A stretch of DNA of 61,589 nucleotides, the filler included, from Deltaproteobacteria bacterium (lineage in GTDB: Bacteria > JAEEML01): NCBI GenBank assembly GCA_016283195.1. It is 7 parts of 7 records of this genome, joined end to end, with 100 filler letters (N's around TTAATTAATTAA, not from the genome) between each part and the next. Parts side by side here need not be neighbours in the genome. Positions count along the whole stretch, not along the records: positions 32,280 to 36,316 come from JAEEML010000066.1; 6 more parts are not named here. The stretch is one strand, 5' to 3'. Made by a program: the position numbers and the translations under genes. The notes beneath the pieces are model-generated. The model ran no database searches. It worked only from the letters and a program-made list of their open reading frames with translations, and was not told where the DNA came from. Shown here piece after piece: positions 28,978 to 41,132 of this stretch (position 1 is its first letter; each line of letters starts with the position of its first letter).

Positions 28978-31326
28978 GTGTCTTATAAAAACAGTGTTGA
29001 GGCTTATCGGCTGAATCCTGACAGACGGCGTGTATGGCAAAATATGGCAGCACTATTAAAAAGTGATGCCGAGCGCCTGGCTCTGGCTGATTTTCTCCAC
29101 AAAATGCCTTGGTCTTATGCCCGCGAAGTTCCTGAAGAAATTATTGCTACCCAGTGGAAGGTTTTAAACCAAAAGCAATATGAAAAACTGGCCGCCGATG
29201 AGAGCTATGTCTTTCATCACAAAGGCTGCTCTTCTTGGATTGGCGAAAGTAGTCTTAGCACCATCCCGGCTTTGCTTAGAAAATTAACCGGCGGTGAATT
29301 TTCTCCGCTACAGCGCATATTTTTTCATGAAAACAGCAAGTTAGCTGCAGCTATTGTCTATAAGTCCAAAGAAGCGCAAAAGCGCTCCTACCCCATTGAA
29401 CCGCCGGCTTGGATTGGCACTTTTAAAAAAACAACCTTAAATCACAGGAGGCAATCTTCCAGCATCTCTTTTGATACGGTGGTGATGGAAAATTCCACTC
29501 TCTTTCGCCTGGAAATATGCAATTCACCGCAATCGACAGTATTACATAAAATATGTGAAATCATGCAGCGCCACCAGGTGAATATTGCCACTTTGGATCT
29601 TTGGTCCATGAATAACGGCTGGACGGGATCACGCAAAATAAAAGAGCGCCACTCCATTGAAATAGAAGTGCGCGAATCACTGGAAGAGGCCATAATTCAG
29701 TCTATAAAGAATGACGCCTTTCGCTACCTGGTGGCGCTCTTAAAGGTACACTCACTCTTTGACATAATAGGCCCGGCCGTGATTGGCCCCAGCAGCTCAC
29801 ACACGGCCGGGGCCTGTCGCATCGGCATGCTGGCGCGGAATATTTTCATGGCTCTGGAAGAAGCCGGCCATTTTAAAAAGATTAGCCGCTTTGACATTAA
29901 ATTATATGGCTCTTTTCGTGATACCGGCCCCGGCCACGGCACGCACATTGCCCTGGGCGGCGGCTTAAAGGGCTTTGCCCCAGATTCTCCGGAACTCACC
30001 AAAGAGGGCGCGCTCGAAGTGCTCATAAAAAAAGGCATTCCCTGGAAAGATAAAAAGCGCGCTATACCTTTTGGTGGCTTTTTGGCAGCCAGCCCCGAGG
30101 AAGATCGCAAATATATTCGCCAACATGGCGATTGCATCAATATTGCCGAAATCATTGCCACTACCGATGCCGGCCCATTTGCCCTGGCCGGTTTTTCCAC
30201 CGGCGGCGGCATTGTGGAAATGCGCTATATCAATAATACCAAGATATTACCGAGTATTTCCGGCAAGCGCGACCTCTGGATTCAGCCGCCGCCTCTGCCG
30301 GCCACTCTGGACCTGGCACATGCGCCGGTAAAAGGTAAGAAATACGGCAAGATTGCCAAGATTTACCCGGAGAGAGCGCCGCTTGATGAATTTACTCTGG
30401 TTTTTAATACCTTCGATGAAGCGCTGGAGTACGCCAAGGATACACAAAAATCACTTTTGCAAATAGCCCTTGAGATGGAAGCCAAGTTGCAAAATACCAG
30501 CGCCGGCGAAATTATGCAAAATATGACCAATCTATGGGAGATAATGAAAGAATCTGTCCACAAAGGATTGGAAAATACGCGCCGTAGCACCATGGGCCTC
30601 TCCGGCGGCGACGCCATAAAACTATTGGAATATATCAGAGCTAAAAAATATGTCTCCTTCCACACTCTGGCCTCCACCTATGCCATGGCCTCGGCCGAGA
30701 CCAATGCCCAAATGGGACGCATAGTGGCCTGCCCCACCGCCGGCGCTTGCGGCATTATTCCCGGAGTGCTCCTGGCCTGGCACGATGTGCATATTGCCAT
30801 GGGCCTGCCGCCGGAGGGGCTGGAGCGCAAAGTGGTGGAGGCCCTTATCGTCGCCGCCTTTATCGGCATGATCTTTTATGACGATATACCCACAGCCGGG
30901 GCTACTCTTGGCTGCCAGGCCGAAATCGGCATCGGCGCAGCCATGGCAGCAGCGGCTATTGTCCAGCTGCAGGGCGGCACGCCGGAAGAGGTGGTGCACG
31001 GCGCTATTTTAACCATTAAAAACTGCATGGGCCTGGTTTGCGACCCGGTGGCCGGCCTGGTGGAAGTACCTTGTATCAAGCGCAATGCCATGTTTTCCAA
31101 CTTTGCCATCACCGCCGCCGATATGGCGCGGGCCGGCATTCGTTCCCAAATTCCGCCCGACCAGGTAGTGCTCGCCGTTAAAGAGGTTGGCGAACACATG
31201 TCCACAGCTTATAAAGAAACAGCCCATGGCGGCCTGGCAGCCACTCTAAATGGCAAAGATGTGGCCCGCCGCTTTGGCGAAATGTGCCAGGGCCTCTTTT
31301 GTGACACTTGCACGCTCTGCCACTAG
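28978..31326 (+). CDS. Fe-S L-serine dehydratase, fused beta+alpha chains with N-terminal ACT-like extension
   Basis: SLFDIIGP..IGPSSSHTAGA and LYGSF..TG.GHGT (beta chain); IVACPTAGACG, GCQAE, GLVCDPVAGLVEVPC (alpha chain). Confidence 0.9.
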   Translation: MSYKNSVEAYRLNPDRRRVWQNMAALLKSDAERLALADFLHKMPWSYAREVPEEIIATQWKVLNQKQYEKLAADESYVFHHKGCSSWIGESSLSTIPALLRKLTGGEFSPLQRIFFHENSKLAAAIVYKSKEAQKRSYPIEPPAWIGTFKKTTLNHRRQSSSISFDTVVMENSTLFRLEICNSPQSTVLHKICEIMQRHQVNIATLDLWSMNNGWTGSRKIKERHSIEIEVRESLEEAIIQSIKNDAFRYLVALLKVHSLFDIIGPAVIGPSSSHTAGACRIGMLARNIFMALEEAGHFKKISRFDIKLYGSFRDTGPGHGTHIALGGGLKGFAPDSPELTKEGALEVLIKKGIPWKDKKRAIPFGGFLAASPEEDRKYIRQHGDCINIAEIIATTDAGPFALAGFSTGGGIVEMRYINNTKILPSISGKRDLWIQPPPLPATLDLAHAPVKGKKYGKIAKIYPERAPLDEFTLVFNTFDEALEYAKDTQKSLLQIALEMEAKLQNTSAGEIMQNMTNLWEIMKESVHKGLENTRRSTMGLSGGDAIKLLEYIRAKKYVSFHTLASTYAMASAETNAQMGRIVACPTAGACGIIPGVLLAWHDVHIAMGLPPEGLERKVVEALIVAAFIGMIFYDDIPTAGATLGCQAEIGIGAAMAAAAIVQLQGGTPEEVVHGAILTIKNCMGLVCDPVAGLVEVPCIKRNAMFSNFAITAADMARAGIRSQIPPDQVVLAVKEVGEHMSTAYKETAHGGLAATLNGKDVARRFGEMCQGLFCDTCTLCH

Positions 31327-32179: not shown

Positions 32180-32279
32180 NNNNNNNNNNNNNNNNNNNNN
32201 NNNNNNNNNNNNNNNNNNNNNNNTTAATTAATTAANNNNNNNNNNNNNNNNNNNNNNNNNNNNNNNNNNNNNNNNNNNN
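32180..32279. other. Artificial contig linker
   Basis: N44-TTAATTAATTAA-N44. Confidence 0.99.
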
Positions 32280-32280
32280 C

Positions 32281-32730
32281 ATCACTTCCGGCGACACAGC
32301 CTTTCGCAGCGCCCGCATGACTATTTTCGATTGGCTAAAACTCGATGAAAAAAAGCTTTCCACCCGCCTCCTTGTCACCACTCCGCTTTTGCTTACCGGC
32401 CTTCTTATCTCTTTTTTGGATTACGGCATCATCTGGCGCTATTTTTCCTGGGCCAACCAGACTCTGGCCATGATTGTGCTCTGGGCGGGCGCTGTCTTCT
32501 TAGTAAAGCAAAATATTCAGCAAAAATATGTGAGCCTTATAGCGGCGGCCCCGGCCACCTTTATGTCGGCCGTCTCTTTTACTTACCTCATTTATGCGCC
32601 GGAGTGTTTTAATCTGGGAGCCAGAGGCGAGCTGGGCCTTACCATTTCTTACGTCGGCGGCCTTTTGGGAGCGCTAATCTGCGCGGGCCTCTTTGTCTTT
32701 ACCGTCTTTCGGCCGGCTGGGAGGAAATAA
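32281..32730 (+). CDS. cstA: Carbon starvation protein A family transporter, C-terminal part
   Basis: ITSGDTAFRSAR and IWRYFSWANQTLA. Confidence 0.9.
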   Translation: MTSGDTAFRSARMTIFDWLKLDEKKLSTRLLVTTPLLLTGLLISFLDYGIIWRYFSWANQTLAMIVLWAGAVFLVKQNIQQKYVSLIAAAPATFMSAVSFTYLIYAPECFNLGARGELGLTISYVGGLLGALICAGLFVFTVFRPAGRK

Positions 32731-33044
32731 TGCAAAAAGTGCGCATCACCGTAAAAAAGATAGTCTCTCATAGCGATTTAATCGCCGAATATGAAAACCC
32801 CATCGAGCACGCCTGTGATATGCGGCTTAATCAGGTCTTTATTTGCAACGGTTGGGAAAAACCGGAGGGCTGTTGCCTAAGTGCCTGGGAGACTGTTTCG
32901 CCCTTTGTCATGGCTCTCGCCCACGGCGGGCAGAATTTTTATGACGGCTGGATGAAAAACCCGCGCTCGGCCATGATCTCCTGCAACGACGGCTTTCGGC
33001 CGGTGAGCTTTTTGCTGGAAACAATGGAGGAAGAGGCGGAATAG
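32730..33044 (+). CDS. TIGR04076-family protein
   Basis: KVRITV...YENPIEHAC...C.SAW...SCNDGFRPVSF. Confidence 0.8.
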   Translation: MQKVRITVKKIVSHSDLIAEYENPIEHACDMRLNQVFICNGWEKPEGCCLSAWETVSPFVMALAHGGQNFYDGWMKNPRSAMISCNDGFRPVSFLLETMEEEAE

Positions 33045-33089
33045 AAGCAAAAAACAAGCAGGCGCTGACGGAATAATCCGCTGCTTTAA

Positions 33090-33335
33090 TTACTCACCCA
33101 CTTTTTTAATAAAAAGCTCAAATGTGCCATCGCCATTATCAATAAAATCAAGAATTTCGTGCCCCTCCTCTTTAACGCTTCTGGGCACGTTTTCCGCCGG
33201 CTCACCACCGTTCAAATGCACCTCAAGAATTTGCCCTTCGTCCATCTCTTCAAGTGCTACTTTGGTTTTTACAAATGTAATCGGGCACTTTACATCGGTG
33301 ATATCAATTTTCTCATCTATTTGAAATTCCGCCAT
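33090..33335 (-). CDS. TusA/SirA-family sulfur carrier
   Basis: DITDVKCPITFVKTK..LE..GQILEV...NVPRS. Confidence 0.9.
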   Translation of the reverse strand: MAEFQIDEKIDITDVKCPITFVKTKVALEEMDEGQILEVHLNGGEPAENVPRSVKEEGHEILDFIDNGDGTFELFIKKVGE

Positions 33336-33338
33336 TTT

Positions 33339-33770
33339 TTAGTTCTCTATAATAATTAGTTCTTCTTTTTCGGCCAGGCGTTCGCCCAAAGGTCCCTCAA
33401 TATGAAAGGCATTAAGCACCGGCTCGGCTGCCGCCAGCGACAAAATAAGATAAGAGGCTTTGCTGTCATGAGCCAGGCGCTTATCCTCCTCCGAGGGGCG
33501 CGAGGGCGTCTCCGGGTGCGAATGCCAGTTACCCAAAAGAGTTAAGCCGCTTAATCTTATATCTTTTAAAGCCGTTAGCTGATCCTCCGGCGTGATGGAA
33601 AAGTGGTCGGCGGCATGGTCGCTGTTGGTGAGCAAATAAACTTTTTTTATCTCTCTTACCCCGTCTGGGCGGTCGTCGCCGGCAATAAGGCCGCAGGCCT
33701 CCTCCGGCTTTTGGGCCAGGGCATGGCGATAGAGCTGCTCAAAATCGGCTTTATGCATTAGAATTTTCAT
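33339..33770 (-). CDS. JAB/MPN+ (M67) metallopeptidase
   Basis: PEEACG and WHSHP...PS.ED JAMM motif. Confidence 0.93.
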   Translation of the reverse strand: MKILMHKADFEQLYRHALAQKPEEACGLIAGDDRPDGVREIKKVYLLTNSDHAADHFSITPEDQLTALKDIRLSGLTLLGNWHSHPETPSRPSEEDKRLAHDSKASYLILSLAAAEPVLNAFHIEGPLGERLAEKEELIIIEN

Positions 33771-33776
33771 AAGTGC

Positions 33777-34592
33777 CTAGTCTTTCTTCTTTAATTCGCA
33801 AACCGGTTGATCGTAATCAATGAGTTTGGTGATGGTTGGGTTATCTGAGCAAACAGCACAGCCCGCGCCACGCGGCGGCAATTTTATCTTGTGAAAAGCC
33901 ATTTCCAAGCCATCGAAAGTGAGCAGCGAGCCGCTTAAAAGCTCACCGGCCCCGGTAAGAAACTTGATAGCTTCGAGCGCTTGCAAAGTGCCGATAACTC
34001 CGGCCATGGCACCGATAACTCCGGCCTCCTTGCAAGTGGGGATGGCATCTTTAGGTGGTGGATTTTTAAAAATACAGCGATAACAAGGGCTTACTCCGGG
34101 AATAACAGTGGTGAGCTGGCCGGCAAAGCGCACAATACCGGCATGGGAAAGCGGCTTTTTAGCCATAACGCAGGCATCGTTGATTAAAAATTTAGCGGCA
34201 AAATTATCGGTACCGTCGATGATGAAATCATAATCTTTAATAAGCTCCATTATGTTGGAACTATTAATAAATTGATAATATGGATTCACCGTTACATCGG
34301 GGTTTATGGCGCGCATGGTTTCTGCTGCCGATTCAACTTTTTTGCGCCCTAAATCGGCGGTAGTGTGAATCACCTGGCGTTGCAAATTGGAAAGATCCAC
34401 CACATCGGCATCGGCAATACCGATAGTGCCCACTCCGGCCGCCGCCAGATAAAGAGCCACCGGCGACCCCAAACCGCCGGCGCCGATAATCAGCACTTTG
34501 CCGTTTAAGAGCTTCTTTTGCCCTTTGGCCCCAATTTCTTTTAAAATAATATGCCGTGAATAGCGCTCCAGCTGCTCATTCGTAAAAGCCAT
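33777..34592 (-). CDS. ThiF/MoeB/HesA-family adenylyltransferase (E1-like)
   Basis: RYSRHI, GAGGLGS, SNLQRQ, DGTDNF, CYRC, C.EAGV, CAVC. Confidence 0.95.
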   Translation of the reverse strand: MAFTNEQLERYSRHIILKEIGAKGQKKLLNGKVLIIGAGGLGSPVALYLAAAGVGTIGIADADVVDLSNLQRQVIHTTADLGRKKVESAAETMRAINPDVTVNPYYQFINSSNIMELIKDYDFIIDGTDNFAAKFLINDACVMAKKPLSHAGIVRFAGQLTTVIPGVSPCYRCIFKNPPPKDAIPTCKEAGVIGAMAGVIGTLQALEAIKFLTGAGELLSGSLLTFDGLEMAFHKIKLPPRGAGCAVCSDNPTITKLIDYDQPVCELKKKD

Positions 34593-34798
34593 TATCTACC
34601 GCCCCCCATGAAGTAGAGAAATTCCACAGCATCACCATCCTTTAAACGGTGGCTGTCAAAGGCGGCCCGCTCAATGAATTCTTCGTTAACCGCCACGGTT
34701 ACATAAAGCGGGCTCTCTACTTTTTCTTCAACAATAAGCTCCTGAATAGTCAAATTGTCGGCCACTTCTTTGCTTTCGCCGGCTATGGTAATTTTCAT
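34592..34798 (-). CDS. thiS: ThiS-family sulfur carrier with C-terminal extension (ends FMGGGR)
   Basis: VAVNEEFI...LKDGDAVEFLYFMGG beta-grasp pattern; AGGAG RBS. Confidence 0.9.
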   Translation of the reverse strand: MKITIAGESKEVADNLTIQELIVEEKVESPLYVTVAVNEEFIERAAFDSHRLKDGDAVEFLYFMGGGR

Positions 34799-34809
34799 CT
34801 TTATTCTCC

Positions 34810-36315
34810 TCAGGTTAGAGTTTTCAAGACCTTTATAAGAGCATCAATATCACTGGGCGAATTATAGAGCGCAAGTGTTGGCCGCACCGAGCTTTCATAG
34901 CCGAAACGCCGCAAAACAGGCTGGGCGCAGTGGTGGCCGGTGCGCACGGCAATACCGCAACTATCGAGCTTTTTTCCTACCTCTTCGTCGCTGTAGCCAG
35001 CCAGTTTAAAGGAGAGCACCGAAGCCTTGTTAAGAGCCGTGCCAATCAAGGTAAGTCCTTTGATTTTTTGCATTTCCTTCATGGCATAGTGCAAGAGTTC
35101 GTGCTCCCAGCGATAAATACAGGGCATACCAATTTCATTTAAATAAGTCAGCGCCGCCCCCAGCCCCACCGCATCGGCAATGCTCCCGGTGCCGGCCTCA
35201 AATTTATTGGGAATACCATTATAAACGGTGCGCTCAAAGGTGACATCGGCTATCATATTGCCGCCGCCATGATAAGGCTCAGCCGCCTCCAGGAGCTCTT
35301 TTTTACCATAAAGAACACCAATACCGGTTGGCGCAAAAATTTTATGGCCGGAAAAGACAAAAAAATCGGCATCAAGTGTGCTCACGTTTACCGGGATATG
35401 CGCCACCGACTGAGCGCCGTCAATGAGAATGCGGACACCGTGGCGATGAGCCAGAGCAATGAGCTCTTCCACCGGAGTAACAGTGCCAAGCACGTTGGAT
35501 ACATGAGTCAGAGCCACAAATTTGGTGCGTTTTGTAAAGAGTTTTTCATATTCGGAAACAATTAGCTGCCCGCTCTCATCGCAGGGGATCACTTTTAAAA
35601 GGGCCCCGGTTTTTTGAGCAATGAGCTGCCAGGGCACAATATTGGCATGATGCTCTAAAATAGAGACAATTATCTCATCGCCAGGCTGCAAAAGCGGCTT
35701 TACATAAGCACTGGCCACCAAATTTATACCTTCGGTGGTGCCGCGTACAAAAATTATCTCCTCGGAACTTCCGGCGCCGATAAAATCCCGCACAATATTG
35801 CGGGCGTTTTCATAAGCATCGGTAGAACGGGCAGCCAAGGTGTGGGCCCCGCGATGCACATTGGAGTTTTCATGAGTATAATAATAGGAAAGCCGGTCGA
35901 TCACCGCTTGCGGCCTTTGAGTGGTGGCACCGTTATCGAGCCACACCAGCGGGTAGCCGTTTACGCGCTCGCTTAATATCTGGAAATCATTGCGAATTTG
36001 CGCCAAAGTTTTGCGGCCGATGCGAATGGATTCATCGCTACCGGCCGCCTGAGGCGGCCCAATGTGGCCCGCGCTCAGTGTAGCCGGAGCAGCTTTAGAT
36101 ACATTAGCGGCACTTTTAGGCTCCACTTTAGGAGCATAAGCCACCGGTTCTGGCAAAAGTAACGCCTCAGGCAGGCTAACAGGAGCACTATGTTGCAAGC
36201 TAAAAGCTGCGGCCGGTGCCGGCTCCATGACCTCTTGGCCTACCCTTCCCTGCAAATCGGGAAAGAGGGCACTCGCCATAGCCGAAATCTCGGCTACCCC
36301 GGGCAAGCCAAAGTG
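34810..36315 (-). CDS. SufS-type cysteine desulfurase with disordered N-terminal extension (family 2A encapsulin cargo type), 5' truncated
   Basis: WLDNGATTQ, ENSNVHRGAH.LAARSTDAYE, FSGHK, RTGHHCAQP; Pro/Ala-rich extension of about 100 aa or more. Confidence 0.88.
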   Translation of the reverse strand, partial: HFGLPGVAEISAMASALFPDLQGRVGQEVMEPAPAAAFSLQHSAPVSLPEALLLPEPVAYAPKVEPKSAANVSKAAPATLSAGHIGPPQAAGSDESIRIGRKTLAQIRNDFQILSERVNGYPLVWLDNGATTQRPQAVIDRLSYYYTHENSNVHRGAHTLAARSTDAYENARNIVRDFIGAGSSEEIIFVRGTTEGINLVASAYVKPLLQPGDEIIVSILEHHANIVPWQLIAQKTGALLKVIPCDESGQLIVSEYEKLFTKRTKFVALTHVSNVLGTVTPVEELIALAHRHGVRILIDGAQSVAHIPVNVSTLDADFFVFSGHKIFAPTGIGVLYGKKELLEAAEPYHGGGNMIADVTFERTVYNGIPNKFEAGTGSIADAVGLGAALTYLNEIGMPCIYRWEHELLHYAMKEMQKIKGLTLIGTALNKASVLSFKLAGYSDEEVGKKLDSCGIAVRTGHHCAQPVLRRFGYESSVRPTLALYNSPSDIDALIKVLKTLT

Positions 36316-36316
36316 C

Positions 36317-36416
36317 NNNNNNNNNNNNNNNNNNNNNNNNNNNNNNNNNNNNNNNNNNNNTTAATTAATTAANNNNNNNNNNNNNNNNNNNNNNNNNNNN
36401 NNNNNNNNNNNNNNNN
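36317..36416. other. Artificial contig linker
   Basis: N44-TTAATTAATTAA-N44. Confidence 0.99.
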
Positions 36417-36417
36417 G

Positions 36418-37075: not shown

Positions 37076-38317
37076 TCAGAACAGGTTTTTAACTTCAGCC
37101 AGTGAAAGATTCTGTTCGCGGGCTATGCGGGCCAAATCCTCATATTCATATTTGGCCTTTTTCACTCCGTAGCCGGCCGCTTCTTTTAGCCGCACATTGC
37201 CTAATTTGTTTTTTTGGTTTACAAGCCGTCGCCTTAGCACATGGCGCTTTATGGCTTTTTCTCTAATACCCAGAGTGCTGGTGTGCTTAAATATGAGGCT
37301 TATCAGGAGCTCTTTTTTCTCTTCATCGCTAATTACCGTGAGCAGCGTGCCCTGGCGCCCTTTTTTCATAATCACCGGCGTTAAATAGACTTCAAGCGCG
37401 CCAGCAGTGCGCAGCTCTTCGGCGGCAAAAGCCAGCTCCTCGCCGCTCATGTCGTCAATATTGCAGGATAATTCATATAAATCGCCGCTTTGGTCTTCTT
37501 GCTCGCCCAAAAAAGCTCTGACACAATTGGCGGCCGGAAAATCTTTATGCCCCAGGCCGTAGCCGATTCTCTGTCCTCTCATTACCGGCCTTGGGCCAAA
37601 TTTTGGTACAAAATATTTGAGCAGAGCGGCGCCGGTGGGTGTACAAAGTTCGCCTTCTATGGCGCCGCTATAACTTGGTATAGCAGTGAGCAGCAGGGCT
37701 GTAGCCGGAGCAGGAACCGGTAAAAGCCCGTGGGCGCATTTTACTGTGCCGAAGCCGGTATTGACCGGTGAAGCCATTATTACATCAGGCGCCAGAATCT
37801 CCATAAGCATGGCTACCATGGCAATATCCATAATGGCATCTTTGCTGCCCAGCTCATGAAAGTGCACCTCGCTTACCGGCCGGCCGTGCACCTGGCTTTC
37901 CGCTTCGGCAATAAGCTGATAGACAGCCATAATATCATTTTTTACTTTGCTGCTTACTTCCAGCCCGGCCACATATTCGTTAATAGTGGCCATAGAGCTA
38001 TGCTCATGATGGTGATCATGTTCATGATTATGGTTTTCATGCTCATGCTTGTGCTCGTGTTCATGCTCATGCTCGTGATGCTGGGCCGAGTTATCGTGGC
38101 TTTCCTCTTCGGCGCCATTAACGGTTACATGGAGCAAAGAGCCGCTTATGGCGCATTTTTGCCCTTTTTCCCGGCTGACTAAAACGCCTTGGAGGCCAAG
38201 TTTATTTATTTTGCGCAAAAATTCTTCCTGGGCCAGCGGCGGGAGCAGTTCAATGAGTGCAGCAGCCAACATATCGCCGGCAGCGCCCATATTTAATTCC
38301 AAATAGAGAGTTTTCAT
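37076..38317 (-). CDS. larC: Nickel-pincer cofactor nickel insertase LarC
   Basis: GAAGDML, His-rich tract, VHFHE.G..D, CAHG.LPVPAPAT, ELCTPTGAA, NIDDM, MKKGR. Confidence 0.95.
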   Translation of the reverse strand: MKTLYLELNMGAAGDMLAAALIELLPPLAQEEFLRKINKLGLQGVLVSREKGQKCAISGSLLHVTVNGAEEESHDNSAQHHEHEHEHEHKHEHENHNHEHDHHHEHSSMATINEYVAGLEVSSKVKNDIMAVYQLIAEAESQVHGRPVSEVHFHELGSKDAIMDIAMVAMLMEILAPDVIMASPVNTGFGTVKCAHGLLPVPAPATALLLTAIPSYSGAIEGELCTPTGAALLKYFVPKFGPRPVMRGQRIGYGLGHKDFPAANCVRAFLGEQEDQSGDLYELSCNIDDMSGEELAFAAEELRTAGALEVYLTPVIMKKGRQGTLLTVISDEEKKELLISLIFKHTSTLGIREKAIKRHVLRRRLVNQKNKLGNVRLKEAAGYGVKKAKYEYEDLARIAREQNLSLAEVKNLF

Positions 38318-39063
38318 TTTTTTACTTCCAAATGGTTAATGCGCGAAGCCATCATAGCGGCGCCGAAGCCGTTATCAATGTTAACTGTGGCCACACCGGC
38401 AGCACAAGAGTTCAGCATGGCGAGTAGAGCCGAGAGGCCGCCGAAAGAGGCTCCGTAACCGATGCTGGTGGGTACGGCAATCACCGGAGCGGCCACCAGG
38501 CCGGTAACCACACTGGCGAGAGCCCCGTCCATACCGGCCACAACTATAATAACAGCTGCTTCCTGTAATTCGGAGAAGTGGGCCAAAAGGCGATGCAATC
38601 CGGCCACCCCCACATCGTTGAGACGCAGCACTTTATTGCCCAAAAACTGGGCTGTAAGAGCGGCCTCTTCCGTTACTTTTAAATCGCTGGTGCCGGCCGA
38701 AATCACCAAAATTGTACCATGGCCGTTTGGCCTTGGCATACCGCCGATAACCGCCAGTTCGCCTTCGGGATAATAGTGCCAGGGCAAAGTGGTTGTTATT
38801 CCGTCTGCCTTTTCGGCACTTAAATGAGTTATTAAAATATTATTTTGCCCATTTTCGGCCATGGCGGTGATAATGCCGTTTATTTGCTCCGGACTTTTGC
38901 CGCCTCCGTAAATAACTTCTCCGGCCCCGGTGCGTACTTGGCGGTGCAAATCTATCTTGGCATAGCCGAGGTCTTTATAAGGAAAACCTTTTAGTGAAAA
39001 ACGGGCCTCGTCAATTGTTAAACTGCCGCTTTTAACCTCTTCCAAAAGCTCTTTTATATCCAT
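38314..39063 (-). CDS. larB: Nickel-pincer cofactor carboxylase LarB
   Basis: AKID.HR, AGTSD, DVGVAGLHRL, VAGMDGAL, PTSIGYG, NIDNGFGAA. Confidence 0.95.
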   Translation of the reverse strand: MDIKELLEEVKSGSLTIDEARFSLKGFPYKDLGYAKIDLHRQVRTGAGEVIYGGGKSPEQINGIITAMAENGQNNILITHLSAEKADGITTTLPWHYYPEGELAVIGGMPRPNGHGTILVISAGTSDLKVTEEAALTAQFLGNKVLRLNDVGVAGLHRLLAHFSELQEAAVIIVVAGMDGALASVVTGLVAAPVIAVPTSIGYGASFGGLSALLAMLNSCAAGVATVNIDNGFGAAMMASRINHLEVKK

Positions 39064-39082
39064 GAAAAACCCTTTGTAAGCC

Positions 39083-39841
39083 TTAGTCTCTTGGCTCAAG
39101 ATCCAGTAGTACGGCCGGGAAAAATTCCTTTAAACCGCTGAGTATAGCCTCTCTGTTTTTTATAGCCAGAGCAAGCTCTTTTTTGGGTAATTGCAATCTT
39201 GCTGCCTCGTGAAAAAGGCGTAAACGCAAATTAGTAAAGCCAAGGCTTTTTAAAAAGGCTTCGCCCTGTTCCACTGCTAAAAGCTCTTCTTTGGTGATGA
39301 CTTTCCCCGTTGGAAAACGGGTGGCCAGGCAGGCGTAAGGCGGCTTATTCCAGGTAGAAAGGCCCATTTTTTTAGAATATAAGCGCACTTTTTCTTTGGT
39401 GAGGCCACATTCCTTAAGCGGCGAGCGGATGTTTAATTCTTTTAAAGCGCGCATTCCCGGGCGCTCATCTTTCTTGTCTGAGGCATTGGTGCCGTCGATG
39501 ATTAGGGAAAAGCCTTCTGCTTTTGCTGCGGCTAAAAGGCTTGTAAACATTAATTTTTTGCAAAGATAACAGCGCTCTGGCGGATTAACAGCAATTTCTT
39601 TATGTAAGAGAATATCAATTTCTATAATTTTGAGCTTGAGCGCTAAAAAGCGGCAATGCTCTCTGGCCTCTTTTAATTCAAAAGCCGGCTGAAAAGAGCT
39701 TTTTAAGTAAAACGGCTGGCAGGTGGCTCCATATTTTTTAGCTGCGTAAAGTAAAAAAGTGGAATCAGTACCGCCGGAATAGGCCAAGGCTACCTTGTTG
39801 TTTCTCTTGAAAAAGTCTTTTAAATTCAAGCAATAATCCAT
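39083..39841 (-). CDS. larE: Nickel-pincer cofactor sulfur insertase LarE
   Basis: PP-loop SGGTDS, RCYLCKK, DGTNASD..RPG, ACLATR. Confidence 0.93.
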   Translation of the reverse strand: MDYCLNLKDFFKRNNKVALAYSGGTDSTFLLYAAKKYGATCQPFYLKSSFQPAFELKEAREHCRFLALKLKIIEIDILLHKEIAVNPPERCYLCKKLMFTSLLAAAKAEGFSLIIDGTNASDKKDERPGMRALKELNIRSPLKECGLTKEKVRLYSKKMGLSTWNKPPYACLATRFPTGKVITKEELLAVEQGEAFLKSLGFTNLRLRLFHEAARLQLPKKELALAIKNREAILSGLKEFFPAVLLDLEPRD

Positions 39842-39854
39842 AATGTAACAGTTA

Positions 39855-41132
39855 TTACAAAAGACAATCAATCATGTCGGGGCCGAAAACGGGAATATGG
39901 GCGTTTTGGGCTACCTCCAGGCGTTCGGCAAAGGAATCGTCTATGAAAATAGCCTCTTTATTTTTAATATAGGCCGATTTTTTTTCTGCCTTTTCCAGCT
40001 GATGTACTTCATCAAAGAGCTCACTTAGGCGCAGTTCTTTAAGTTTTTCTTTAAGAACGCCACCTTTGTGCCGCGAGAGCAAAATGAGCTTTTTTCTTTC
40101 ATTAAGCCCTTTAAACAAAAGTGTGAGCAGAGCGGTATTGAGACGCTTTTCTTCCAAATAGAGGCAATCGTCAAAATCCACATATATTTCATTATATTTA
40201 AGCGAAAGACGATAGCGATTATCGAGGGCCCTATCAAGCTCAATATCGTAGCCGCTATTGGTTAAGACGGAAAGTGGATAACCGAAAGCATCAAAGAGCG
40301 TCATGAGGGCAAAATTAAGACCGATGGCCCGAAAAAGGCCGGAAGAACCGCCAAGGCGACTGGCTACTTCCAGCAAAGTAAGCTCGCCGGCGCTATCTTC
40401 CTTTAGCTGGAAAAACCAGGCACCGCGCATGGTTAGTGCGCCGTTTATGGCCCTAGCCATGGCTAAAAATTCCTGGTTTCGCTCTGTAGCCGGCACGGTA
40501 TTTACGCTGATGCCGTTCATGATGCGGCGGCGCCGGCGCCCCTTGGCTACCAAAAGCCGCCCCTCTTTATCGGTAAAGCAATCGACAGTATATTCCGGGC
40601 CGCTTAAATATTCGCTGAATATATAAGGCTTATTTAAGGCTTTTATAGCGCTGAGCGCGGCTTCGTTCTCTATTTTTTGGGCCCCGCGGGAGCCGTAACC
40701 AATGTCCGGCTTTGCAAAAATAGGAAAACTGACATCCTTATTTATATCAATAATTTTTGGACATTTTACCACCGCTGAAAGGGCTTTATATGTAGCGCTT
40801 TTGGAGAGGCAGACGGCGGTGGTTTTAGGCGGCGGGGCAATAACCAAAGCGCCCAAAAGGGGCTCGTTTTCTTTCGTCGCGCTGATAACGCTGTCCATAG
40901 CCGGATAGATGGCATCTATATGCTCTTTTTGCACCAGAGCGGCTATGGCCGGAATAAAGGCCGGGTCATTTACCATTGGCAGGCCGCCGATATAGTTTTC
41001 ATAGACAAATTGGCCGTGGTCGGCTACCGAGCTGGCGCCGATGAGCTCAAAATGGCGGCTTTCTTTTAGGGCCCGGTGGATTTCCAGGGCTATTTCCGAA
41101 CCGCAGGGAAAGACTAAAATGCGCTTTTTCAT
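39855..41132 (-). CDS. ATP-grasp domain protein with C-terminal HAD-like domain
   Basis: ILVFPCGSEI, KP..GYGSRG, EYL.GPEYTVD, LLEVASR; then DFDD...FIDDSF.ER. Confidence 0.85.
   Translation of the reverse strand: MKKRILVFPCGSEIALEIHRALKESRHFELIGASSVADHGQFVYENYIGGLPMVNDPAFIPAIAALVQKEHIDAIYPAMDSVISATKENEPLLGALVIAPPPKTTAVCLSKSATYKALSAVVKCPKIIDINKDVSFPIFAKPDIGYGSRGAQKIENEAALSAIKALNKPYIFSEYLSGPEYTVDCFTDKEGRLLVAKGRRRRRIMNGISVNTVPATERNQEFLAMARAINGALTMRGAWFFQLKEDSAGELTLLEVASRLGGSSGLFRAIGLNFALMTLFDAFGYPLSVLTNSGYDIELDRALDNRYRLSLKYNEIYVDFDDCLYLEEKRLNTALLTLLFKGLNERKKLILLSRHKGGVLKEKLKELRLSELFDEVHQLEKAEKKSAYIKNKEAIFIDDSFAERLEVAQNAHIPVFGPDMIDCLL

Follow-up and report, generated by a model that had tools for sequence, protein, structure and literature searches.

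The locus described here lies in a 61,589-nucleotide (nt) stretch of DNA, referred to as the window, from a genome labelled Deltaproteobacteria bacterium (assembly GCA_016283195.1). It combines a cysteine desulfurase, predicted to be an encapsulin cargo, with genes for ubiquitin-like sulfur carriers, and it sits on a 4037-nt contig (C101; G000:C101) that corresponds to window positions 32280-36317. The window consists of separate contigs strung together with N...TTAATTAATTAA...N spacers (e.g. 32180-32279 and 36318-36417), so gene neighbours across those marks are not true neighbours. Within C101, five minus-strand open reading frames (ORFs) encode the 3' part of the cargo desulfurase (CyD; 34810..36317; Aminotran_5 461.6 bits), a 68-amino-acid (aa) ThiS-type sulfur carrier (34592..34798; Pfam ThiS 47.3 bits; TIGR01683 67.6, cut-off 37.45), a 271-aa ThiF/MoeB-type E1 adenylyltransferase (33777..34592; PF00899 294.7 bits; NF004281 291.3, cut-off 266), a 143-aa JAB/JAMM metallopeptidase designated JAB1 (33339..33770; PF14464, Prok-JAB, 84.0 bits), and an 81-aa TusA/SirA-type persulfide carrier with a Cys-Pro motif, DVKCPITF (33090..33335; PF01206 70.5 bits). 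The Pfam matches of all five proteins are above their cut-offs. ThiS follows the desulfurase after 11 nt, ThiF overlaps ThiS by 1 nt, and JAB1 and TusA come next after 6 and 3 nt. This confirms the observation of a first-pass annotation, which had reported the five genes as co-oriented with gaps of 11 nt or less; its interpretation, that a nanocompartment sulfur store could feed a thiocarboxylate relay directly through TusA, is partly supported.

The desulfurase frame is open to the contig end, where an N run begins at 36318 (spacer 36318..36417, no strand), in agreement with the earlier view that the gene is truncated by the contig break and that the shell gene lies upstream, beyond it. A search of the source genome (G000; 3.22 Mb, 190 contigs, rated 100% complete with 4.18% contamination) placed the upstream sequence on contig C159. 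Positions C159:1-537 match C101:3501-4037 end to end, in the same orientation, with 98.5% identity and 8 mismatches. Because of this 537-nt end overlap we consider C159 and C101 to abut, and the break between them looks like strain microheterogeneity. The 8 differences among 537 nt translate into 5 amino-acid changes between the two copies of the cargo 5' region. One of these, near window position 35985, places Q in the C101 copy of the DFPIL motif where P is found in the C159 copy and in 75/77 extensions (C159 copy included); this may reflect strain variation or an error.

With the two contigs joined, the window appears to hold the downstream half of a single eight-gene sulfur island, which reads along the minus strand as JAB2, ThiS-like/E1/rhodanese fusion, shell, cargo desulfurase, ThiS, ThiF, JAB1 and TusA. 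The three genes upstream of the cargo encode a 149-aa second Prok-JAB protein, JAB2 (C159:3040-3489, identified with Pfam), a 487-aa fusion protein (C159:1575-3038, defined by its Pfam domains) and a 319-aa family 2A encapsulin shell (C159:553-1512; NF041162 474.3 bits). The desulfurase had been proposed to head the operon; JAB2, the fusion and the shell all precede it. Its true start (MITT...) is at C159:566, giving a full protein of ~511 aa, and the TTG start listed at 36306 is an artefact of the contig end. As in relatives, the cargo start overlaps the shell stop, here by 14 nt.

Sequence profiles indicate that shell and cargo form a predicted family 2A desulfurase encapsulin. The shell exceeds the cut-off of the family 2A model (NF041162, 474.3 bits against 380) and is the one family 2A shell gene found in a profile search of the contigs, in line with the first-pass expectation that the assembly would contain one. 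It also matches PF19307 (SrpI-like; 310.5 bits), and its score against the family 2B model (370.1) is below that model's cut-off of 400. The closest solved structures are 8T6R (Acinetobacter shell, 363 bits) and SrpI 6X8M (354.5 bits), over 305 residues. There is no cNMP-binding insert, and the sequence features are those of family 2A. The desulfurase scores 775.2 bits against the family 2A cargo model NF041166 and 535.2 bits against the SufS subfamily model TIGR01979, a difference of 240 bits that bears out its assignment to the cargo type. The alignment to NF041166 covers profile positions 225-623 for the window part of the protein, and overall it is confined to positions of about 214-623. 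The class-V aminotransferase domain (Aminotran_5) spans residues 121-490, and both the pyridoxal-phosphate lysine motif SGHK and the catalytic motif GHHCA are present, as they are in 74/74 homologues. The cargo gene lies directly beside the shell gene, as it does in 77/80 related loci.

The N-terminal extension of the desulfurase provides further evidence of cargo function. About 100 residues precede the catalytic domain in the window part of the protein, including the predicted cargo-loading motif GLPGVAEISAMASALFPDL (36253..36309, minus strand). The full extension, read from C159, is ~115 aa long, probably disordered, and Pro/Ala-rich as originally described (A 18%, P 12%, S 10%). Measured to the DNGATTQ motif, 143 residues are found here, compared to a median of 195 in homologues. 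Among 77 homologues with an intact 5' end, the loading motif has the consensus aG[LV]PS[AE]aEL..LAN.LFPDL and is located ~16 residues from the start. It was recovered in 74/77 cargo homologues with a relaxed pattern and in 70/77 with a strict one; shuffled N-termini gave a mean of 0.89 and a maximum of 4. The two conditions under which the first-pass proposal would have fallen, a lack of any shell and a motif that is not conserved, thus did not apply. Three further motifs are semi-conserved: [FY][AS]P.V in 70/77 homologues (AYAPKV in the source cargo), I..G.K[ST]L just ahead of the catalytic domain in 64/77 (IRIGRKTL in the source cargo), and FDWEHP in 27/77 (absent from the source cargo). The N-terminal motif resembles the LARLANEFFS motif of SrpI-associated desulfurases (Nichols 2021), and the presence of several semi-conserved motifs fits the multi-motif cargo-loading domain described by Benisch 2024.

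These features bear on a housekeeping explanation, in which the desulfurase would be a SufS protein for iron-sulfur clusters and ThiS/ThiF would serve thiamin or molybdenum cofactor synthesis. Both TIGR01979 (SufS subfamily) and TIGR01683 (thiS) do pass their cut-offs. However, the cargo model outscores SufS by 240 bits, the protein carries a ~115-aa extension with a conserved loading motif, and its gene overlaps the shell gene. Furthermore, no Suf scaffold family was found among the eight island genes with Pfam and NCBIfam (sufBCD, sufE and sufU were not searched elsewhere in the genome). ThiG (PF05690), MoaE (PF02391) and TtuA (TIGR00269) had no match in the 190 contigs of the source genome, rated 100% complete; as controls, the same three models were matched in 14, 11 and 7 of 14 genomes. 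The failure to find these enzymes argues against thiamin, molybdopterin and TtuA-type tRNA thiolation as end uses. The thiamin, molybdenum cofactor and TtuA readings were rejected for want of their acceptor enzymes in the source genome, and we consider the housekeeping explanation as a whole very improbable.

Two carrier systems flank the encapsulin core. The window ThiS ends in MGGGR and is thus a precursor, with one residue past the glycines; in 46/46 ThiS homologues the C-terminal GG(G) is likewise extended, by 1-6 residues that vary (R 15, Q 7, C 7, others). Adenylation of such carriers requires an exposed glycine carboxylate. The precursor tail is reportedly trimmed by a partner JAB, as in work on Wolinella HcyS/HcyD and Pseudomonas QbsE/QbsD. 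The second carrier is the N-terminal domain of the fusion, which comprises a ThiS-family region at residues 3-89 ending in IAGG (PF02597 29.3 bits, cut-off 22.5), a ThiF domain (PF00899, 240.7 bits) and a rhodanese domain (PF00581, 49.2 bits). Both ThiS and the fusion carrier domain combine a beta-grasp family match with a C-terminal Gly-Gly, which qualifies them as putative sulfur carriers. Across 41 aligned fusions, A87-G88-G89, four zinc cysteines and Cys292 are invariant, as are Cys443, Arg448 and Ser449 of the rhodanese loop (CKEGQRS), and the linker after AGG is variable. The fusion scores 371 bits against the MoeZ model NF005902 (cut-off 647) and misses the MoeZ/MoeB equivalog cut-offs; its ThiF domain with a C-terminal rhodanese carrying an active-site cysteine is the MoeZ/Uba4-type arrangement. 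The module ThiF has no rhodanese domain, and neither do 43/44 of its homologues, which are shorter than 300 aa. The JAMM zinc motif (Glu ... HxHx7SxxD) is found in both JABs and in 44/44 JAB1 and 54/54 JAB2 homologues, and the TusA CP motif in 38/43 homologues. Elsewhere in the source genome, two near-identical 78-aa ThiS-family genes ending in PLGGG (G000:C37:913-1149 and G000:C160:19468-19704) each adjoin a predicted lipoprotein gene, with no E1, JAB or ThiG near either.

An E1 with a C-terminal rhodanese loads the carrier thiocarboxylate in the Mycobacterium tuberculosis CysO/MoeZ/Mec/CysM system and in eukaryotic Uba4/MOCS3-Urm1. The island fusion resembles these systems in its E1, its C-terminal rhodanese and its partner JAB. 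Unlike in MoeZ and Uba4, the carrier is fused to the E1 N-terminus, so it would have to be cut free after the invariant AGG. E1, ubiquitin-like and JAB proteins can also be read as a set that mainly conjugates proteins in the manner of SAMP/TtuB, either tagging or regulating the shell or cargo, or acting in phage defence (CBASS Cap2/Cap3, Bil). The best NCBIfam name of both JABs is indeed 'desampylase' (71.5 and 46.1 bits, missing the cut-off of 130), the ubiquitin-like domain matches SAMP1 weakly (43.6 bits, cut-off 60), and PADLOC returned partial matches to the Cap2 E1 and the Cap3 JAB. These PADLOC matches are weak (at most 69 bits for the E1 and 33 bits for the JAB) and cover shared cores only, whereas the MoeB and MoeZ models score 367-373 bits. 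Furthermore, neither an E2 domain nor a cyclase was found among the eight island genes with Pfam, a rhodanese with an invariant cysteine is fused to one E1, TusA accompanies the other, and the neighbours in relatives are cysteine and methionine enzymes. We therefore regard a conjugation function as improbable. Phage defence was rejected separately, as PADLOC gave partial matches only and JAB2, ThiS, TusA and the shell had no match at all.

To survey conservation, one genome per species was considered. At least 524 loci have a close relative of the shell, and the best 80 were analysed, with shell relatives of 82-89% identity over the best-matching segment and all eight proteins placed by tblastn. 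The 80 loci come from rumen and gut isolates and metagenome-assembled genomes (MAGs) of Lachnospiraceae, Ruminococcus/Oscillospiraceae, Fibrobacter, Succinivibrionaceae, Treponema, Selenomonas and others. The fusion is immediately upstream of the shell in 78/80, and the remaining 2 are cut at a contig end and start at the shell. The desulfurase is downstream of the shell in 77/80, and the other 3 are cut by contig ends. JAB is directly upstream of the fusion in 51 of the 68 loci with room for it. The best loci are only 64-76% identical to the island at the nucleotide level, so the protein conservation reflects selection and not recent copying. ThiS and ThiF together were found within 8 kb in 45/80 loci and all four module genes in 41/80; when only loci flanked by 6 kb or more on either side are counted, 33 of 41 have ThiS and ThiF. 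Five encapsulin loci without a module within 8 kb were checked genome-wide, and 4/5 of these genomes carry the module elsewhere, one of them ~12 kb away. A Treponema genome has the fusion and no module in the same genome-wide check.

Co-occurrence separates the two carrier systems more clearly. We sampled 201 genomes from the family of Lachnospiraceae isolate AB2028, of which 5 carry the shell. The fusion is present in 5/5 shell carriers, beside the shell in each, and in 0/196 of the others (detected at 45-51% identity; the enclosing ORF has 490 aa or more in four carriers and 419 aa in the fifth, G447). The module ThiF, called at 70% identity or more to the window ThiF, is present in 4/5 shell carriers compared to 17/196 others. 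Fisher values are 4e-10 for the fusion and 4e-4 for the module ThiF, and both overstate significance because related genomes are not independent. Taken together, the 5/5 against 0/196 distribution and the occurrence of the module in shell-free genomes indicate that the fusion, and not TusA, is the strict clade-specific partner of the encapsulin, and that the ThiS-ThiF-JAB-TusA module is an independent system, widespread by itself and often recruited beside the encapsulin core. One genome of the Lachnospiraceae family sample (G522) has two shell genes (C40:3804-4715 and C26:36957-37874), each with its own fusion beside it, and two module ThiF genes. Another 300 genomes, sampled from the class to which a Succinivibrionaceae carrier belongs, yielded five canonical gammaproteobacterial family 2A loci; these read SAT-shell-desulfurase, and none of the five (0/5) has a ThiS, ThiF, JAB, TusA or E1-rhodanese match.

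Phylogenies were built for the core (shell, fusion and cargo concatenated; 69 rows, FastTree, midpoint-rooted) and for the module (42 rows, midpoint-rooted). In the core tree, non-Clostridia are nested among Clostridia; the nested rows are Fibrobacter (3), Succinivibrionaceae (3), Treponema, Selenomonas and a Planctomycetales-labelled MAG. The source island is on a 0.21 branch within a 15-row group, starred in the tree, that contains Lachnospiraceae and Succinivibrionaceae. In the module tree, the source module groups with Succinivibrionaceae and the Planctomycetales-labelled row. As the trees are midpoint-rooted and MAG labels may be wrong, no donor is named. The two topologies fit a history in which core and module were brought together repeatedly.

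Eight shell-free genomes with the module have the gene order MetY-like, small sulfite reductase, TusA, thioredoxin, ThiS, ThiF, JAB, where the small sulfite reductase is a ~290-aa protein with NIR_SIR and ferredoxin domains. Of these loci, 7/8 have the MetY-like gene, and the same count applies to the sulfite reductase and to TusA; CysN-like and sulfate-binding genes are close by. The module is therefore of the thiocarboxylate type that normally comes with a sulfite reductase, as had been recognised from its genes. Beside the encapsulin, sulfite reductase accompanies the module in only 6/45 loci, compared to 7/8 shell-free loci (p = 8e-5), or in 2/32 when loci with at least 2.5 kb on both sides of the module are considered (p = 1.5e-5); related genomes are not independent, so these p values overstate significance. 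The source genome has no match to the small sulfite reductase. In loci of the L012 type, a JAB2-fusion-shell-cargo-SAT cassette is located between the MetY-like gene and thiS, two genes that are adjacent in the shell-free locus L104. Of the 80 loci, 43 contain a MetY-like gene and 54 a SAT-like gene. The MetY-like gene scores 411.7 bits against TIGR01326, below the cut-off of 495.1. Other candidates for sulfur use in the source genome are encoded on C156 (CysK) and at the end of C132, where a cystathionine-gamma-synthase-like gene occurs together with a CysK-like fragment. A thioredoxin gene is located between tusA and thiS in Ruminococcus-type islands (e.g. L081 12157-12507, 13941-14846) and in 5/8 shell-free modules (among L106-L111), sometimes accompanied by a thioredoxin-reductase-like gene. 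This thioredoxin, which is absent from the source island, could supply electrons for persulfide or elemental sulfur (S0) chemistry.

The closest described systems are desulfurase encapsulins and thiocarboxylate pathways. Like SrpI/CyD of Synechococcus elongatus (Nichols 2021) and Enc/CD of Acinetobacter baumannii 118362 (Benisch 2024), it has a shell of the HK97-fold family without a cNMP domain and, directly downstream, a SufS-type cargo whose N-terminal loading domain contains an L..LAN..F motif. SAT, a frequent neighbour of family 2A desulfurase encapsulins, is also frequent in relatives of the island (54/80). At ~115 aa rather than ~225, the loading domain is shorter, and it has no alignment with the first 225 positions of NF041166. 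Unlike in known family 2A loci, the island's 'rhodanese' is the C-terminal domain of the ThiS-like/E1/rhodanese fusion, with a JAB gene before it, and a ThiS-ThiF-JAB-TusA set follows the cargo. Data S1 of Benisch 2024 lists Lachnospiraceae bacterium G41, Fibrobacter and Pseudobutyrivibrio with an 'associated rhodanese' and SAT, and we infer that this 'associated rhodanese' is the fusion. Supplementary File 2 of Nichols 2021 has ten neighbour rows, nine of them Pfam families, and ThiF is not among them. In the main texts of Nichols 2021, Andreas and Giessen 2021 and Benisch 2024, ThiF, TusA, JAB and MoeZ are not named, although not every word was queried in each. A supplementary table of Andreas and Giessen 2021 has at least one neighbourhood row, apparently Family 2, with JAMM, ThiF, sulfur carrier and TusA. 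Full-text searches found no literature linking encapsulins with thiocarboxylate, or with ThiF and desulfurase; PDF supplements (such as Fig. S5 of Andreas and Giessen) may include ThiF in their enriched families.

The flanking systems themselves correspond to two kinds recognised by Iyer, Burroughs and Aravind 2006. Types 4b-4d combine ThiS/MoaD, JAB and an E1-rhodanese fusion, with or without cysteine synthase; type 4e, which includes Wolinella, combines ThiS/MoaD, JAB, an E1 'always' without rhodanese, SirA (= TusA), sulfate-assimilation genes and O-acetylhomoserine sulfhydrylase. On this classification, the island is an encapsulin/cargo pair flanked by one system of each kind. The module has the ThiS, JAB, rhodanese-less E1 and SirA/TusA of type 4e; unlike type 4e, the source genome has no match to the sulfite reductase and no MetY-like orthologue. 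Iyer 2006 also describes ThiF proteins that begin with a ubiquitin-like domain, encoded in thiamin operons and in one case next to sulfhydrylase genes, and its available text does not mention a three-domain ThiS-like/E1/rhodanese form beside a shell. Unlike MoeZ, the fusion gene is strictly tied to the shell gene. The island module resembles the Wolinella HcyS/HcyF/HcyD/MetY system in a ThiS with residues past GG, a rhodanese-less E1, a JAB and TusA, and an O-acetylhomoserine-sulfhydrylase-like gene is near 37/46 module loci and 7/8 shell-free loci of relatives. It differs from Wolinella and type 4e in that sulfite reductase and sulfate assimilation are mostly missing beside the encapsulin and are kept in shell-free relatives. 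In Wolinella succinogenes, the HcyS/HcyF/HcyD/MetY proteins are said to form a thiocarboxylate route to homocysteine.

These comparisons suggest that a Wolinella-type thiocarboxylate pathway is supplied with sulfur by the encapsulated desulfurase instead of by sulfite reductase, a reading to which we assign a probability of roughly 0.6. In the proposed mechanism, the encapsulated desulfurase would take sulfur off cysteine and retain it as S0 or persulfide in the shell, as in the Acinetobacter homologue. Sulfur would exit as a small species via pores, or at the shell surface, and be caught as persulfide by the rhodanese domain (in cis) and by TusA (in trans). JAB2 would release the ubiquitin-like domain after the invariant AGG and JAB1 would trim ThiS-GGGR; each E1 would then adenylate its own carrier, and the persulfide would turn the carrier into a thiocarboxylate. 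In relatives, thiocarboxylates would pass the sulfur to sulfhydrylases, yielding homocysteine or cysteine. Benisch 2024 showed that desulfurase encapsulins store elemental sulfur, and the homologue for which such storage has been shown is that of Acinetobacter alone. The same study reports that the widest pore of a solved family 2A shell is 6 A, which excludes proteins. With a pore of this size, neither TusA nor the rhodanese domain should be able to reach the cargo, so the direct hand-off from cargo to TusA envisaged at first is unlikely.

The pore size is one of several points that weigh against a shell-fed pathway. The evidence consists of gene content, catalytic motifs, linkage and co-occurrence, from which the flow of sulfur itself is deduced, and the co-occurrence statistics are subject to the non-independence of related genomes. 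The join between C101 and C159 is drawn from an overlap with 8 mismatches rather than from reads. The cut-off of the cargo model NF041166, 800 bits, is missed by the window cargo (775.2) and also by a full-length 591-aa homologue (L012; 779.3). The source genome carries a reduced form of the arrangement: its island has neither SAT nor a MetY-like gene, and no MetY-like orthologue was found genome-wide (best 32% identity). The Fibrobacter module joins the Ruminococcus type and the Fibrobacter core joins a Lachnospiraceae isolate. Finally, the module is absent within 8 kb in 8/41 well-flanked encapsulin loci; it may be upstream or downstream of the core, with TusA first or last and a variable order; and the ThiS module is present without an encapsulin in 17/196 sampled genomes.

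The last three points equally favour an alternative in which core and module are neighbours without any hand-off, being separate units under shared cysteine/methionine regulation, with the module drawing on free sulfide or on another desulfurase. Rrf2 or LysR regulators, CysK and SAT are also found in these neighbourhoods, and another NifS/IscS-like desulfurase is encoded on C116 of the source genome. However, ThiS begins 11 nt past the cargo stop codon in the source genome, the module is enriched in shell carriers (4/5 vs 17/196), and sulfite reductase is lost where the shell is present (6/45 vs 7/8). Furthermore, the Fibrobacter core and module have different nearest relatives and are nonetheless adjacent again. 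We regard separate units as a doubtful explanation, though a stronger one than conjugation. Within the reading of the shell as a replacement for sulfite reductase, a bolder version can be advanced tentatively, at somewhat less than even odds: the fusion and its JAB would be the withdrawal machinery so far missing from desulfurase encapsulins, docking on the shell and removing S0 as a rhodanese persulfide to form a thiocarboxylate from which homocysteine or cysteine is rebuilt, with a second outlet through TusA and the ThiS module. Shell, cargo and carriers would together be a full sulfur bank that has taken over from sulfite reduction in gut anaerobes.

Few additional features were found around the island. 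The one strong promoter-like site is located upstream of JAB2 (C159:3678-3651, minus strand; a consensus match only, at 11/12 positions). A consensus search found no convincing terminator after tusA, and Rfam detected no riboswitch or T-box in the island or three related loci. The island is flanked by a TIGR04076-family gene and cstA on the tusA side and by a CPBP protease gene ahead of JAB2; none of the three has matches across the 80 loci, so these unconserved genes were not counted as island parts. The other end of C101 (cstA 3' end and TIGR04076-family gene) matches the end of contig C42 with 93-98% identity (L007, G000:C42, 4635-6020 vs window 32317-33044). The C42 copy has an extra 461-aa ORF between the two genes, with a type I restriction-modification specificity domain (Methylase_S, 60 bits), and the repeat looks like two strain haplotypes in one bin. 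On the next contig of the window (37076-39871), a LarC-like nickel insertion gene (414 bits) with a long His/Glu-rich insert precedes a LarB-like gene (AIRC domain) and then a 262-aa ORF without a Pfam match at 1e-5, which we take to be LarE-like. On the previous contig, C100 (window 28978-31326), a 782-aa ORF encodes both chains of serine dehydratase, beta then alpha, after ~250 N-terminal residues that have no match.

Public sequencing runs containing the stretch are animal gut metagenomes, with at most 0.26 of it covered. Assembly of four public runs gave short contigs only, and two metatranscriptome libraries yielded contigs of 151-195 nt that match the desulfurase and tusA with 0-1 mismatches; these are too little for a claim of transcription or for bridging the contig break. 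Related genomes drawn for comparison share with the source genome a kinship of 'same domain' only, so the set either holds no close kin or reflects a missing placement of the source genome. Among the 41 drawn, a shell match was found in 2, the source genome included; the other is a 472-aa frame, probably family 2B. The cystathionine-gamma-synthase-like gene of the source genome (G000:C132:62057-63217) is 94.8% identical in protein and 86.7% in DNA to a gene that comes after the ThiS module in a Fibrobacter succinogenes MAG (L047:15672-16832), and the island genes are only 58-85% identical to those of that MAG. The close match hints at either the taxonomy of the source genome or gene transfer.

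Each part of the island is of a known kind, and rumen shells and cargos are already catalogued in Data S1 of Benisch 2024. The combination of a strictly shell-linked ThiS-like/E1/rhodanese fusion with a sulfite-reductase-less HcyS-type module appears to be undescribed. Benisch 2024 states that the route by which stored sulfur is withdrawn is unknown and proposes the operon rhodanese as a candidate. In the clade examined here, a large gut and rumen group in which close relatives of the shell are encoded by at least 524 species-level genomes, this 'rhodanese' is part of a predicted self-contained thiocarboxylate-forming enzyme found only with the shell, and a second carrier system that normally relies on sulfite reductase adjoins without one. 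The island would thus provide a concrete, testable acceptor pathway for encapsulated sulfur, with cultured carriers in Ruminococcus flavefaciens ATCC 19208, Pseudobutyrivibrio xylanivorans DSM 14809 and Lachnospiraceae bacterium AB2028, and it bears on how rumen bacteria send cysteine sulfur to methionine. An encapsulin tied to two ubiquitin-like sulfur-carrier systems may be a way for gut bacteria to draw on shell-stored sulfur.

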